Shown here: in pieces, positions 7,919-15,215 of the stretch
How the letters are laid out: every line of letters begins with the position of its first letter
Position numbering within the stretch: position 1 is the stretch's first letter
Source of the DNA: a virus
Strand: one strand, 5' to 3'
Length of the DNA stretch: 41,630 nt
Virus genome (UHGV): UHGV-1355554
Position numbers and translations under genes: made by a program
The notes under the pieces: generated by a model
Databases searched by the model: none
Seen by the model: the letters and a program-made list of their open reading frames with translations, nothing else
What the model was told of the DNA's origin: nothing

Positions 7919-8206
7919 TTATTGTTTTATTTTGATTCCTATGATGAAGAAACCATTGCTAAATCGTTTCTTTTCTACATTGTAGCAGCTCATTATTTCT
8001 TTGTCAATCTTTTTTATTCCTCCTCCATTATCAATTGCAATTTGTTGAATTACTTTTTTATAGTCTGATAGTTTTACTTTGTCTGCTTTATTTCCTGTGA
8101 TTATGATTTTATTATATAGTAGCTTTTCTTCAATGTTAAGTGTTTCTAGCCATGCGGCGTATTGATGCATGATTTCGTGTGGTTTACCTGTAAATGTTAT
8201 TTGCAT
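7919..8206 (-). CDS. Hypothetical protein (95 aa)
   Basis: Second ORF of the leftward operon starting at 8497. Confidence 0.45.
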   Translation of the reverse strand: MQITFTGKPHEIMHQYAAWLETLNIEEKLLYNKIIITGNKADKVKLSDYKKVIQQIAIDNGGGIKKIDKEIMSCYNVEKKRFSNGFFIIGIKIKQ

Positions 8207-8900: not shown

Positions 8901-8937
8901 AATAACTGGTCTAATTAACTCACACAGTATCCCTTAT

Positions 8938-9990: not shown

Positions 9991-10383
9991 ATGCCACAAC
10001 GTAAGTGTGCAGTGGCTTCGTGTCGCAACTATGTCACGCTACCTGAGCGCTACTGTGACGCACACAAAGGACACAACAACAGTCAATACAATAAGCATGT
10101 AAGATACAACGATGACAACAAGAAGTATAGTAACTTCTATCATTCAACACAATGGAGGAACGCACGTAAAGCCAAGCTAATGGAGCAACCACTCTGCGAG
10201 GTATGCTTGGCACAAGGCAAGTACACTAAGGCTGATATGATTCACCATATAATCGAATTAAGAAGTCCAAATGGATGGAAACATAGACTTGATTTAAATA
10301 ACTTAGAGTCAATCTGTTACGAGTGTCACAACAAGGAAGAACACAGTTACAGTTGGAAAAATAGAGGTAGGGAACAGCGCTAA
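9991..10383 (+). CDS. Terminase-associated HNH endonuclease
   Basis: N-terminal Cys4 ribbon. HNH core MIHHIIEL...N...CYECHNKEEH. Classic position upstream of the terminase small subunit. Confidence 0.8.
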   Translation: MPQRKCAVASCRNYVTLPERYCDAHKGHNNSQYNKHVRYNDDNKKYSNFYHSTQWRNARKAKLMEQPLCEVCLAQGKYTKADMIHHIIELRSPNGWKHRLDLNNLESICYECHNKEEHSYSWKNRGREQR

Positions 10384-10657
10384 ATCAACAACCGCACAGT
10401 CAAAATTATTTTTAGGGAGACCCAAAATGTTTTTACCCCCTACCTTTTTATAACGAATTAATCGCTGCCCCCTCTTCTTCGCACAAAAGTCCCAAAACCA
10501 ACTTTGAAAAACGTCCTTTTCCCTCGTAAAACGTAATAAAAAACTGGTTTCTTGTGTTGAAACACAAGGATTCACACTACATCTAGTATGCTATTTCCCT
10601 TTAACGAGTATTCCCCCAATAAACAAGATTGAAGCTGGTTTCTTTACACAAGATTCT
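10384..10657. other. Candidate cos/packaging-site region: non-coding, C-tract rich, with direct repeats
   Basis: C-tracts TTACCCCCCTACC, GCTGCCCCCTCTTC, TTCCCTCG and TATTCCCCCAAT. Repeats CTGGTTTCTT...ACACAAG (10544-10570 and 10634-10655), a CTTGTGTT-GA-AACACAAG palindrome and AAAACGT x2. Sits between the HNH and terminase genes. Confidence 0.3.
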
Positions 10658-10916: not shown

Positions 10917-10945
10917 TTGACAACCTCCTTTATTTGTGCTACTAT
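10917..10945 (+). promoter_or_regulatory. Sigma-A-type promoter TTGACA-17-TACTAT upstream of the HNH remnant
   Basis: Read directly. RBS AAAGAGGAG follows. Confidence 0.4.
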
Positions 10946-10972
10946 ACTAGTATGAAAGAGGAGATTTTATTT

Positions 10973-11169
10973 ATGGAAGAAATTTGGAAAGATGTTGAAG
11001 GATATGAAGGTTTATATCAAGTAAGTAATTTTGGAAGAGTGAGGAGTCTAAAGAGTTCTATGGAGCTAGTGAATGTGCTAGACAATTAGGATTAAACCCA
11101 TCACACGTGTCAGAAGTTATAAATGGTAAACGTAATCACACTGGTGGATACACATTCAAATACAAATAG
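10973..11169 (+). pseudogene. Decayed NUMOD4/HNH_3 homing endonuclease: an N-terminal 29 aa joined out of frame to a C-terminal 36 aa, with the catalytic core deleted
   Basis: MEEIWKDVEGYEGLYQVSNFGRVRSLKSS... then, in another frame, ...YGASECARQLGLNPSHVSEVINGKRNHTGGYTFKYK*. Compare the intact copies at 24625, 36771 and 40604. Confidence 0.6.
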
Positions 11170-11175
11170 AAAGGA

Positions 11176-11646
11176 GTGATTATCATAGCCAGACCAAGGA
11201 AATTACTTAACGCAACGAGCAAACACTTAACAACTGAGGAGCGTGAAGCAAAAGAAAAAGAAGAAGAAGTGCTGTATAACTATGAAAAACTAGATTTTAG
11301 TTACTTCCCACCTGGACTAATGCAGGGTGCTTTCAATGAGTGGACGCGCATTGGCTCTTTCATAGGCGATCTACCAATATCAGAACTTGATATGAATACG
11401 CTCATAAGATACTGCAATTACACCTATCTATATCAAGACGCTATTGAACGATTAGAAGTAGAAGGACCCATCACTCCAGATGGTAAAAAGAATCCATTGG
11501 TTGATATTGTTAACTCCTATTCAAAAGAATTGAAATCAACAACCAACGACCTTGGGTTAACAATCAATTCACGAATGAAGATAATTCTTCCAGCAGAGAA
11601 AGAAAAAGAAGTATTAGATCCATTCGCAAAAATGTTTGAAGGATAA
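11176..11646 (+). CDS. terS: Terminase small subunit (P27 family), GTG start
   Basis: ARPRKLL... N-terminus and ...LEVEGPITPDG...LGLTINSRMK core typical of P27-family TerS. AAAGGAG directly precedes the GTG. Confidence 0.75.
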   Translation: MIIIARPRKLLNATSKHLTTEEREAKEKEEEVLYNYEKLDFSYFPPGLMQGAFNEWTRIGSFIGDLPISELDMNTLIRYCNYTYLYQDAIERLEVEGPITPDGKKNPLVDIVNSYSKELKSTTNDLGLTINSRMKIILPAEKEKEVLDPFAKMFEG

Positions 11647-11684
11647 CATACACAAAACTAAAAGTTTGTGGTATAATGGGTACA

Positions 11685-11921
11685 GCAAATAAGTGGTAAA
11701 CATTAGATACACCAAAATATAGGTACTGTCGGAGGTATCTATATTGAACACTCGTGTACGGCGCACGTAAACGACCGCTCGCCACAGTATCTGGCGGATA
11801 GTGTGATAGTATACCCTACTTTACGACAGGAACACTAAAGTGGATATGCACTGAATGTAGGGCGTGTATATTTGCAGATACTAGCCTCCCACTAGTCTAG
11901 CTAACTAGTGGGTCTTTTTTT
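11685..11921 (+). ncRNA. Candidate structured small RNA, or cos-associated element, about 235 nt with its own promoter and intrinsic terminator
   Basis: Extended -10 TGTGGTATAAT at 11667-11677. GC-rich nested helices: CUGUCG/CGACAG, GGUAU/AUACC, CGUG...CACG, UCGCCA/UGGCGG. Terminator at 11888-11921. No ORF with an RBS. Confidence 0.3.
11888..11921 (+). terminator. Rho-independent terminator (9-bp stem CCCACTAGT/ACTAGTGGG plus T7)
   Basis: Read directly. The TGTGCTATAAT promoter for terL follows at 11921-11931. Confidence 0.6.
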
Positions 11922-11963
11922 GTGCTATAATATAAGTGACTAGCATAAAAGGAGGATACATAA

Positions 11964-13736
11964 ATGTTTGACCCAGTACAAGACTATATAGATTTGATTG
12001 AAAAAGGTTATGTAGAAGGTAAGAAATACGTTGTTGAAGATGGGAAATATAAAACAATTAAAGTTGATATTCGTGTAGGAAGTAAAATTAAAAAAGCGAT
12101 TGAACGTCACCAAAAAGAAGTTGAGTTATCTAAAACTCCAGACTATCCATATATTTATAGACCAGAAGAAGCGCTTCCAGTTATTAGGTTTATAGAAATG
12201 CTACCAGAACCCAAGAGTCGTAAACCCATGAAGTTAGCCACCTTCCAAAAATTCATTATTGGTTTACTATATGGGTGGCGCAAAAAGAGAGATAACACAA
12301 GACGTTTTAGAAAAGCCTATATATCTCTAGCACGTAAGAATGGTAAGTCGTTAATTGTGGCTGGTATTGCCTTATACGAGTTTTTGTTTGGTAAGAACCC
12401 AGCAGCCAATCGCCAAGTAGTAGCGGCAGCGAATACAAAAGACCAAGCTGGAATCGTTTTCAGAATGCTAAAGTCTCAGCTGACCGCACTTCGTAGCGTA
12501 TCAAAAGAAGTGAAGAAAAGAACTACCGTTCGTAGATATGATATTGAAGCTAGTGATGAATCAACCGTCAAACCATTATCAAGTGACGCAGACACACTTG
12601 ATGGATTGGACGTTTTGTGTGGTATCCTAGATGAGTATGGCGAAGCTAAAGATACAAGCATTATTGAAGTATTAGAATCCTCACAAGCACAACAAGTAGA
12701 GGGATTAATTCTAATGATCTCCACAGCCACAAAGAATCTGAATGGCCCAATGTTTACAATAGACTATGCTTTTGTTGAAAAGTTACTGAATGAAGAAGTT
12801 AAAGCGGATGCCTATCTCGCATTGTGTTGGGAGATGGATAGTCTAACAGAAGTTGATGATGAAGCGAACTGGATAAAGGCAAACCCTTTGCTAGAAATAC
12901 CAGAAGCGTATGAATCAATGATGGAACACAAGCGAAACTCACTTGATGAATATAAAGGTAAAATGGATTTATCAGGTTGGCTTACAAAAGAAGAAAATTT
13001 CTGGGTTCAATCATCTAAAGATAGTTTTGTAACCAAAGAGGAATGGGACGCAGTGAAAGCACCTACTAATTACAATATTAGAGGTAGAAAAGTATATATT
13101 GGTATTGACTTAGCCAGAACTTCAGACATGACAGCGGTTTCATGGATTATTCCAATAGAAGAAGAACATAAGTTATTGCTAGATACACATGGTTTTGTAT
13201 CATCAGTAGGAGGTATTGACCACAAACAGTCAATTGACAAGATACCATATAGACAGTATGAAGCGATGAACCTCATTCATATTTCTCAACGAGATGATGG
13301 TCTAATTGACACAGAAGAAATGTGTGATTGGATACGTGACTTTATAGATTATAATGACCTGCAACTAGTGGGCATATATTATGATCCATTTATGATGGAT
13401 AAAGCTTTAATTAATCTAAGTAAAACCTATCCAAAAAAACTAATTGAAGTACCGCAGAAAATTAACTATTTATCTTCACCAACTAGAGCATTAAGAGAGC
13501 TAATTCGTAGAGGTGAAGTACTGCACACCAATAATCCTTTATTGAATCGTGCGGCATACAACGCTATGATTAAAGAATACAATGACAGTGTTGCTATTGA
13601 TAAGCAAATAAACAGAAATAAAATTGACTCACTTGATGCCATCATAAATGCGATGAGTGACGCTCAATATCATGATTATGACGCACCAACATTGCAAGAT
13701 TTACTAGATACGGGAGAGTTTGGCTTTGGTTACTAG
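11964..13736 (+). CDS. terL: Terminase large subunit
   Basis: Walker A SLARKNGKS, ATPase and RNaseH-like nuclease domains, 590 aa. Confidence 0.9.
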   Translation: MFDPVQDYIDLIEKGYVEGKKYVVEDGKYKTIKVDIRVGSKIKKAIERHQKEVELSKTPDYPYIYRPEEALPVIRFIEMLPEPKSRKPMKLATFQKFIIGLLYGWRKKRDNTRRFRKAYISLARKNGKSLIVAGIALYEFLFGKNPAANRQVVAAANTKDQAGIVFRMLKSQLTALRSVSKEVKKRTTVRRYDIEASDESTVKPLSSDADTLDGLDVLCGILDEYGEAKDTSIIEVLESSQAQQVEGLILMISTATKNLNGPMFTIDYAFVEKLLNEEVKADAYLALCWEMDSLTEVDDEANWIKANPLLEIPEAYESMMEHKRNSLDEYKGKMDLSGWLTKEENFWVQSSKDSFVTKEEWDAVKAPTNYNIRGRKVYIGIDLARTSDMTAVSWIIPIEEEHKLLLDTHGFVSSVGGIDHKQSIDKIPYRQYEAMNLIHISQRDDGLIDTEEMCDWIRDFIDYNDLQLVGIYYDPFMMDKALINLSKTYPKKLIEVPQKINYLSSPTRALRELIRRGEVLHTNNPLLNRAAYNAMIKEYNDSVAIDKQINRNKIDSLDAIINAMSDAQYHDYDAPTLQDLLDTGEFGFGY

Positions 13737-14009: not shown

Positions 14010-15215
14010 ATGGGATTATTTATAAATAAGGATACACCAGTCACAGAACAACAGCTTATTGATTATATCAATACTGGCACAGTATATAGTACCAATTTTA
14101 CAGGACTAAAAGCGCTTACAAACTCAGATATTTATACAGGTGTGAATATCATTGCTGGGGATATTGCGCAAAGTCCATTCAAACCGATTAACAACAGTAG
14201 CATAGATGAAAACCTGTTAACATTACTAAACAAAGAACCAAAAACGAATCAATCACACTACACTATGATGTATGCAGTAGTGTCAAACCTAATTTTAACT
14301 GGTAATGCATATGTTCTCATTCATAGGAATAACGATGGCTCAGTTAAAGAATTGGAGTTTGTTGAAACACAACAAGTAAACGTAATCAGAGACCTTGCAA
14401 CAGGTTTATACAGATATGAGGTTAACATGCCATATGGTAATATCATGTATAAATGCAAGCCTAACGACATTTTACACTTCAAGTTAAGCACAACAGATGG
14501 GTGGTTAGGCCGTTCACCACTATTATCTCTTAATGAGGAAATATCACTACAAACCAACGGACTAAAAGTACTAAACAATTTCTTTTCAAAAGGTGTATTC
14601 TCAGGCGGCATTCTTAAATTATTGAATGGTACCGTAAACAACCAAACGAAAGCCAAAATTAGAGAAGACTTTGAGAAAGTGAATGGCGCTGGAGGAACAA
14701 TCGTTCTTGATGAAACTCAAGAATTCAATGAGAACAAAATCAACACAGAAGTACTAAAATTAATTCAAGCCAATAAATTTAGCACGCAACAGATTGCCAA
14801 AGTATTGGGTATTCCAGTAAGTAGATTTGGACAAGAACTAGTCAACTCATCTGACACAGGTCAGAATGATATTTATATTGCCAGCACTATTGCGATGTAT
14901 GAGTCATCTATCTGCGATGAGATAAATCTAAAATTAGGAGTAGAGTTGGAATTAGATTTATCTAAACTACGCCAAGATACAAAAGAAGATAGACTGCGTA
15001 GAATTGCAGAAGGAAGAGTGAAGTCTGAATTTGCACAAGCCTTAACGGTAAATGACGCACGTGAGTATCTTGGTTTTACTGAGATTGAAGGAGGAGAAGC
15101 CTTACTTGGTCAAACACCAGAAACAAGTGAAAATAAAACAGAACAGGATGTGAATGTTAATGAAGAAGAACTTGGAGATCAGAGCCCTACAGACACTGGA
15201 GAAGACAGAGGATAA
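14010..15215 (+). CDS. Portal protein (HK97 family)
   Basis: 401 aa. Position after terL. Acidic C-terminus. Confidence 0.85.
   Translation: MGLFINKDTPVTEQQLIDYINTGTVYSTNFTGLKALTNSDIYTGVNIIAGDIAQSPFKPINNSSIDENLLTLLNKEPKTNQSHYTMMYAVVSNLILTGNAYVLIHRNNDGSVKELEFVETQQVNVIRDLATGLYRYEVNMPYGNIMYKCKPNDILHFKLSTTDGWLGRSPLLSLNEEISLQTNGLKVLNNFFSKGVFSGGILKLLNGTVNNQTKAKIREDFEKVNGAGGTIVLDETQEFNENKINTEVLKLIQANKFSTQQIAKVLGIPVSRFGQELVNSSDTGQNDIYIASTIAMYESSICDEINLKLGVELELDLSKLRQDTKEDRLRRIAEGRVKSEFAQALTVNDAREYLGFTEIEGGEALLGQTPETSENKTEQDVNVNEEELGDQSPTDTGEDRG

Follow-up and report, generated by a model that had tools for sequence, protein, structure and literature searches.

The genes for the small and large terminase subunits, terS and terL, usually adjoin or overlap, which raises the question of what lies between them in virus genome UHGV-1355554, a stretch of 41,630 nucleotides that we call the window. 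The gap runs from 11647 to 11963 and measures exactly 317 bp by Pfam-supported gene calls, the length already given in a first-pass annotation made from the sequence alone, in which the gap was read as an autonomous small-RNA gene of ~235 nt or, alternatively, as the cohesive-end site. The window represents an Enterococcus faecium siphophage of the IME-EFm1/IME-EFm5 group, and all 22 similar phage records were from Enterococcus phages. We have little doubt that the gap contains a real structured RNA element on the + strand. Release of this element as a discrete, free-standing transcript is probable from its predicted signals, and we propose with moderate confidence that a free-standing gene, equipped with its own promoter and terminator, occupies the gap and encodes a structured non-coding RNA. 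The invariance of the promoter, covariation in the core and the terminator, a separate terL promoter, and the lack of an open reading frame (ORF) support the autonomous gene that had been suggested.

Promoters and terminator of the predicted RNA gene

The extended −10 promoter that the first-pass annotation had placed at 11667-11677 is present as part of a predicted promoter (P1) that begins 3 bp past the terS stop codon and belongs to a conserved class. The motif CACAR-N13-TGnTATAAT occurred in 9 exact copies in the window (0.02 expected by chance), 8 of them on the + strand and several directly before genes with a ribosome-binding site (RBS), e.g., at 8923 and 24577. In all 15 relatives fetched from GenBank, the CACAA box and the TGnTATAAT element of P1 were invariant and the spacer between them was variable, as would be expected if the promoter is functional. 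In many relatives, a second promoter of this class (P2; ACACAAAAGTCGGATTTTGTGnTATAAT) stands in tandem with P1, ~45 nt further on; in the window, P2 has been rearranged into a hairpin, H0.

The strong terminator and the fresh terL promoter described earlier were both recovered. The terminator hairpin (−13.5 kcal/mol, z −4.45) has two covarying pairs in its stem (CG/UA/UG and AU/CG) and a loop that is nearly invariant among relatives; the opposite strand has no U-run, and in the record of phage 9184 the homologous site carries a terminator annotation. The predicted terL promoter that follows lacks a CACAA box, and its −35 position overlaps the 3′ arm of the terminator. The sequence TGCTATAAT after the terminator was kept in all relatives and also in Efquatrovirus (phages of E. 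faecalis), whose flanking sequence differs. Sequence features of a sigma-A extended −10 element were present in both predicted promoters (11669-77 and 11923-31) and were kept in relatives. With the start set 7 nt past the −10 element of P1 and the end at the U-run, the predicted primary transcript would be ~235 nt long.

The earlier impression of a GC-rich segment of ~130 nt in an AT-rich genome was borne out, the GC content of 11753-11883 being 47.3% against a window mean of 35.1% (standard deviation, 4.8%), a value in the top 0.55% among 131-nt windows. No + strand ORF of at least 20 amino acids was found in the gap, in line with the earlier statement that no ORF with an RBS lies inside, and coding potential was rejected on this ground; relatives differ by indels of arbitrary length. 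A scan for tRNAs and tmRNAs found none. A remnant of a group I intron or homing endonuclease was rejected because the element lies between complete genes and gave no Intron_gpI hit at E values up to 10.

Across both strands of the window, two promoter classes were seen. TTGACA-17-TGnTAtAcT fronts minus-strand early/replication blocks (e.g., at 7987, 7893, 4642, 1662, 33550, and 39864), and the CACAR-N13-TGnTATAAT class belongs mostly to the + strand structural block. This distribution of predicted promoters suggests temporal classes, with perhaps a phage-encoded factor reading the CACAA box.

Fold and covariation of the RNA

A conserved core of ~105 nt (11778-11882) was common to 30 copies. 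The proposed fold was scored on a 30-sequence alignment (A1), in which every copy of the 3′ domain was distinct and 26 different cores were represented. Standard pairs were found in 94% of 1367 cells, with changes on both sides at 18 pairs, and none of 500 shuffles matched the observed pairing or covariation score. When the 3′ partners were slid by 1 to 3 columns as a control, pairing fell to 23 to 51%. RNAalifold, which cannot draw pseudoknots, independently recovered hairpins H2, A, and D and the terminator. The 35 G-U cells in A1 and the slightly better pairing of the + strand (94.0%, versus 92.4% for the minus strand) agree with the orientation of the promoters and the terminator.

Compensatory changes support five pairings, namely, H2, hairpins A and D, a kissing contact between A and D, and a pseudoknot that the H2 loop forms with the 3′ tail; the last four, which the first-pass annotation did not contain, are the best supported. 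Hairpin A has a 25-nt loop with an invariant GAUAGUAU, the kissing strand CCCUAC, and a conserved UUGACGAC, and it showed three independent compensatory events: type B sequences interchange U-A and C-G, relative L016 has another change from U-A to C-G, and EfS9 has one from A-U to G-C. In hairpin D, 5 pairs had changed on both sides (AU, GC, GU, and UA types), and its 12-nt loop carries the complementary strand GUAGGG. Pairing of these two strands, designated helix C, links the hairpin loops of A and D and is therefore a kissing contact. Pseudoknot E, the 5′ strand of which is the H2 loop, showed one compensatory change (A-U to G-C in EhiS268) and 8 G-U pairs. A competing helix B (UAGUAU at 11807-12 with AUACUA at 11878-83), paired in 94.7% of cells without covariation, was dropped in favor of E, which was paired throughout the alignment and had a compensatory change. 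Comparison of the copies thus supports an H-type pseudoknot of H2 and E, in the long third loop of which two mutually docked hairpins, A and D, would sit. Some 50 positions were invariant, many of them unpaired, including those in GAUAGUAU, UUGACGA, AAAG, and GCAGAUAC. A covariance model of the core gave one hit per genome (112 bits in the window) and found no second copy in the window.

The nested helices drawn in the first-pass annotation fared unevenly. UCGCCA/UGGCGG corresponds to H2 and was upheld, with covariation. The GGUAU/AUACC helix was not conserved, and its GGUAU is the 3′ arm of the local hairpin H0. CGUG/CACG (hairpin H1) is plausible but has given way in some relatives to different small hairpins, which likewise precede an A-rich tail. 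CUGUCG/CGACAG, or a kissing version of it, was compensated in phage Aramis but broken in relatives L045 and L050. H0 was confined to short-form relatives and derives from the spacer of the P2 that long forms carry there; its closing pair is C-G in the window, A-U in L016, L050, and Aramis, and a mismatch in L045. By-eye inspection of H1 and its A-rich tail as an H-type pseudoknot revealed no covariation.

Small modules made of a hairpin, an A-rich tail, and a stretch complementary to the loop recur (phage 9184 [L003], 1280-1307, and equivalents; window, 11753-11778). Relatives have, for instance, AGUGG-UUCACCACACU-CCACAUUAAAAAGGGUU, and the window has CGUG-UACGGCG-CACG-UAAACGACCGC; the second helix that such modules might form showed no covariation. 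One of these modules gives a weak hit to PreQ1-I (16.4 bits, E 1.3). The coordinates of all features are collected in Table 1.

Table 1. Predicted elements of the terS-terL gap and neighboring genes in the window
Feature	Position	Strand	Description
HNH endonuclease gene	9991-10383		Pfam
terS	11176-11646		Pfam Terminase_4
Promoter P1 (predicted)	11649-11677	+	−35-like TACACA (11649-54), 17-bp spacer, extended −10 TGTGGTATAAT (11667-77)
Primary transcript (predicted)	11684-11921	+	~235 nt; from positions of P1 and terminator
Hairpin H0	11716-11745	+	11716-27/11734-45, loop GUCGGA; −12.4 kcal/mol, z −5.4
Hairpin H1	11753-11767	+	CGUG/CACG, loop UACGGCG, then A-rich tail UAAACGACCGC; 84% of cells paired
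Hairpin H2	11780-11796	+	CGCCA (11780-84)/UGGCG (11792-96); 98% paired, CG<->UA in 9 sequences
Pseudoknot E	11786-91/11877-82	+	AGUAUC with GAUACU; 30/30 sequences paired
Hairpin A	11800-11836	+	AGUGUG (11800-05)/AACACU (11831-36)
Kissing helix C	11814-19/11857-62	+	CCCUAC with GUAGGG, 6 bp; 98.9% paired, AC/GU<->CU/AG
Hairpin D	11840-11875	+	12 bp, 11840-51/11864-75; −10 kcal/mol
Intrinsic terminator (predicted)	11888-11921	+	Hairpin 11888-11912, 9-bp stem CCCACUAGU/ACUAGUGGG, 7-nt loop CUAGCUA, UC + U7
terL promoter (predicted)	11921-11931	+	Extended −10 TGTGCTATAAT
terL RBS	11951-55	+	GGAGG, then terL ATG at 11964
terL	11964-13736		Pfam ATPase and nuclease domains
Portal gene	14010-15215		Pfam

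Relatives and distribution of the unit

The terS-terL gap was present in 15 of 15 relatives fetched from GenBank, with lengths of 317 to 1177 bp, the shortest being that of the window. Common to all were a P1-type promoter after terS, a 3′ domain of ~180 nt, the terminator hairpin, and the TGCTATAAT promoter with the terL RBS. The 5′ part of the RNA is a mosaic of hairpin modules that differs between otherwise close phages; long-form relatives add exchangeable 5′ hairpin modules, giving predicted RNAs of up to ~650 nt, and the window has the minimal form. The description of the unit as inserted between the terminase genes therefore does not hold as an event in this one genome: the unit is ancestral to the clade, and its version in the window is the most reduced. 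Insertions are found around it. Homing endonuclease genes are inserted near the RNA in DELF1 and LG62, outside the RNA itself; in DELF1 and L016, an HNH gene is inserted after the −10 element of the terL promoter; and in EF36P1 the terminator is followed by a small ORF cassette. The core occurs twice in tandem in KEN21, the first copy being without a U-run.

A pattern scan of IMG/VR yielded 14 further copies, some of them duplicating GenBank phages. A metagenome scan added 2 distinct phage copies (L069 and L071), its other hits being chance matches or duplicates, and a pattern scan of a collection of bacterial and archaeal genomes found no core copy, its single hit being a chance match.

Some copies showed further peculiarities. 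A 77.5-kb contig (L056; IMGVR_UViG_3300029751_000004) contained two core copies at 62-169 and 354-425, spaced ~260 nt apart, of which one is partial. Since the contig is about twice as long as the usual genome, it could represent a concatemer or a tandem duplication like that of KEN21. Aramis (L004) has at ~1822-1883, directly before terL, an apparent tandem duplication that spans the 3′ half of the terminator through the terL promoter and RBS. A long-form accessory module, GGGG-GCGCCUCUUAACAAUGCGUACCA-CCCC, was present in KEN21 (L012; 2241-2259), EhiS268 (L010; 1564-1582), dArtagnan, and L069 and absent from the window. Its resemblance to Rfam abiF (19.9 bits, E 0.92, 9 of 11 loop bases), suggestive with regard to a decoy role, was not significant and was not used.

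In Efquatrovirus, the TerL proteins of which are 65 to 67% identical to that of the window, an extended −10 promoter directly after terS is followed by 300 to 500 nt of hairpins, a terminator, TGCTATAAT, an RBS, and terL. The gap hairpins show compensatory changes there as well. The core of Efquatrovirus is different, and a covariance model built on the E. faecium-type core gave no hit there; at least one 5′ module was common to both groups, with compensatory differences. The Efquatrovirus RNA region had matches in 106 phage records, none of which annotates it. In distant phages with the HNH-terS-terL module (Streptococcus OlisA3, Lacticaseibacillus R23.9, and Staphylococcus vB_SauS_308), terS and terL were 11 bp apart, 21 bp apart, or overlapping (gaps of 0 to 21 bp), which argues that the gap and its RNA are a lineage-specific feature of Enterococcus phages and not an insertion in the window genome.

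Two other features of the window were noted. Directly upstream of terS, at 10934-11170, lies a decayed free-standing homing endonuclease, consisting of a 51-amino-acid ORF with a NUMOD4 motif (10934-11089) and an out-of-frame remnant; LG62, KEN18, Aramis, and dArtagnan have intact HNH/homing endonuclease genes of 150 to 217 amino acids at this position. A second free-standing unit was found at 399-490 on the + strand, with a promoter of the P1 class, CACAA-N13-TGCTATAAT (399-425), a predicted transcript of ~60 nt with a CU-rich, anti-Shine-Dalgarno-like run (CCUCCUCCCUCCUC, ~437-452), and a terminator hairpin (459-482) with a T-run. No + strand gene follows it, its neighbors being on the minus strand. 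The 111-bp region matched 120 Enterococcus phage records of both genera, mostly with 90 to 100% identity, where it is usually part of a hypothetical protein or unannotated.

Competing readings and the possible role of the RNA

Rfam and covariation searches on homologous regions, proposed as checks in the first-pass annotation, gave no Rfam family and revealed structural covariation among relatives. At the gathering thresholds of Rfam 15, the window and 14 relatives had no match (including pRNA, GOLLD, ROOL, HEARO, group I introns, riboswitches, C4, and EAR). Scans with permissive E values of the gap, three long-form relatives, and one Efquatrovirus gap returned only chance-level hits, the best of which were SSRC38 (22.9 of 80 bits), abiF (19.9 of 37), and PreQ1 (16.4 of 39), with E values of 0.1 to 1.3. 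The PreQ1-I-like hit (E 1.3), confined to relatives, was not significant and was not used. A literature search found no description of this RNA, and among the records listed, the gap was annotated with nothing beyond a terminator, an RBS, or doubtful short ORFs. In a survey of IMG/VR intergenic regions, 14 candidate structured RNAs were consistently found upstream of putative large terminase genes, for which the authors suggest a cis-regulatory role (Fremin et al. 2023, PMC10690425). In the element studied here, a promoter separates the RNA from terL. Judged by Rfam and the literature found, this RNA constitutes a new family, marked by a distinctive fold and a new genomic niche, although one of those 14 candidates may correspond to it.

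The order of promoter, structured RNA, terminator, and terL would also fit a cis-acting leader that is transcribed from P1 and in which binding of a ligand, or of a protein from the phage or the host, to the core decides between a stop at 11888-11921 and read-through into terL and the late genes, after the model of a riboswitch, the PR′-6S-tR′/Q unit of lambda, or a put-like antitermination RNA. The cis-regulatory role considered possible for the survey candidates upstream of large-terminase genes points the same way (PMC10690425). So do the weak PreQ1-I-like modules of relatives, which scored below threshold. Against a leader stand the extended −10 promoter conserved between the terminator and terL in both genera and the lack of coupling between core and terminator, the spacer between which varies in sequence and length and holds an extra hairpin in some relatives. 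In addition, we found no conserved antiterminator pairing or other alternative pairing with the terminator arms, no Rfam riboswitch match reached threshold, and the first of the tandem cores of KEN21 has no U-run; we consider this reading unlikely. Lambda PR′-6S RNA-tR′ does resemble the unit in having a promoter, a strong terminator ~200 nt further on, and a short terminated transcript upstream of late and packaging genes. Lambda 6S, however, is a by-product of Q-dependent antitermination without a conserved tertiary fold, whereas the present RNA has a conserved fold and its terminator precedes a separate promoter. A structured 3′ untranslated region of the terS mRNA, which would stabilize that mRNA and act as an insulator that prevents occlusion of the terL promoter, without a function in trans, draws on the absence of a terminator between terS and the element and on the overlap of the terminator with the −35 position of the terL promoter. 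For such a purpose, a simple terminator would suffice, and the dedicated conserved promoter after the terS stop codon, often one of two in tandem, would be left unexplained, as would the ~50 invariant positions, the conserved tertiary pairings, and the exchange of modules between genera. We regard this explanation, too, as improbable.

Two further explanations start from the neighborhood of the terminase genes. The pRNA of phage phi29 is a phage-encoded, free-standing structured RNA of 120 to 174 nt that has its own promoter and is tied to DNA packaging; the complementarity of two of its hairpin loops covaries between relatives. GOLLD and ROOL, the large ornate non-coding RNAs of Lactobacillales, Firmicutes, and their phages, combine pseudoknots with peripheral domains that vary, and they often occur in the phages and prophages of Gram-positive bacteria. 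A packaging-linked RNA that oligomerizes through loop-loop pairing in the manner of these RNAs, at the portal or terminase, would suit an element placed between both terminase genes in two genera and having two loops with a covarying 6-nt complementarity that could in principle pair between molecules. The likeness to pRNA (a promoter-bearing structured phage RNA, two covarying complementary loops, a setting among packaging genes) does not extend to sequence or to a match with its Rfam model, and phi29-like phages have protein-primed genomes without TerS, whereas this phage has a full TerS/TerL/HNH cohesive-end (cos) system. GOLLD and ROOL likewise had no match in the window or the 14 relatives; they reside in tRNA clusters and are larger than the RNA of the terS-terL gap (~235 nt here, to ~650 nt in relatives). 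Since, moreover, close analogues in other genera lack such an RNA and the two genera have different cores despite a TerL identity of 65%, a packaging RNA seems highly improbable. The proposal that the GC-rich core is instead a DNA site, for cohesive ends or for other packaging or recombination, could appeal to its position beside the terminase genes and to the local GC excess. The termini of IME-EFm1, however, have been mapped by read statistics to a 9-nt 3′ overhang, GGGTCAGCG, flanked by ...GAATTTCGTGCGAAGAAGAG and ATTAATTCGTTATAAAAAGG... (PMC4445525); its GenBank record begins with CTCTTCTTCGCACGAAATTC and ends with ...CCTTTTTATAACGAATTAAT, exactly the flanking sequences. The homologous sequence in the window, CCTTTTTATAACGAATTAAT-CGCTGCCCC-CTCTTCTTCGCACAAAAGTC, lies at 10443-10491, with one base different in the overhang. 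The predicted cohesive end is thus CGCTGCCCC at 10463-10471, between the HNH gene and terS and 1.2 kb upstream of the RNA, which refutes a cos site of this type within the gap; and the G-U pairs and compensatory changes indicate selection on RNA, not on DNA sequence. The probability left to a DNA site is negligible.

In the reading that we prefer, a free-standing RNA gene, the phage-class promoter P1 directly after terS would start the RNA and the strong intrinsic terminator would end it ~235 nt downstream, releasing in the middle or late phase a discrete transcript that would fold into a compact shape and bind a partner in trans. This partner would most likely be a host or defense-related protein, with the RNA as a decoy or scaffold affecting which strains permit phage growth; a role as a base-pairing regulator is less likely. 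As a side effect, the terminator would insulate the terL promoter from upstream transcription, and expression of terS and terL, from separate promoters, would be uncoupled. We put forward a decoy or host-interaction role specifically as a tentative suggestion. It is preferred because close phages, and also different genera, exchange accessory modules, because two host-specific genera carry different cores, and because the locus is a hot spot for mobile insertions. A further reason comes from an Appelmans host-range training experiment in which the evolved phage K38.2, consisting of an Aramis backbone with two dArtagnan segments, namely, exactly this intergenic region and the Dit/Tal/RBP region, gained a host strain (PMC11210271). 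Another structured RNA of the terS-terL region, the cabRNA of staphylococcal phages, interacts with a host defense protein, the CBASS cyclase, and triggers defense (PMC10686824). It arises from within adjacent terS and terL coding sequences, without a dedicated promoter-terminator unit and without similarity to the RNA described here (PMC10686824), and we saw no sign linking the latter to CBASS.

Several points weigh against a free-standing RNA gene acting in trans. The transcript is, in all members, a prediction from sequence comparison, and given the junction with terS, which is without a terminator, the RNA could simply be the 3′ untranslated region of the terS mRNA. The minimum free energy (MFE) z-score of the single sequence is weak (−2.1; minus strand, −2.6), such scores failing to discriminate strand or structure, and the evidence for structure is for this reason comparative. 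Most of the 26 distinct cores belong to one of two haplotypes (effective sequence number, 1.29), which means that independent compensatory events are few in number. The pseudoknotted helices were proposed after inspection of the same sequences that served to test them. Finally, the partner in the proposed trans role is conjectural, and the swap of the RNA region in K38.2 may be hitch-hiking.

An RNA unit at this position explains why terS and terL are uncoupled in two genera. More broadly, and as a rather doubtful extension, more than 120 Enterococcus siphophages of the E. faecium IME-EFm1/EFm5 group and Efquatrovirus might carry an unrecognized class of modular, multiply pseudoknotted RNAs of 230 to 700 nt whose modules tune the range of host strains, e.g., by decoying defense or abortive-infection sensors, and which possibly self-assemble via kissing loops like pRNA or ROOL and GOLLD. 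Provided that the RNA is expressed and functions in trans, it would add a new compact fold, a pseudoknot enclosing two kissing hairpins, to the few free-standing structured phage RNAs, encoded at a locus that would recombine as a cassette, of which a host-range training experiment gave one instance. The phages concerned are under development against vancomycin-resistant Enterococcus, and the finding raises the question of whether a non-coding RNA cassette may contribute to the strain range or fitness of therapeutic phages.

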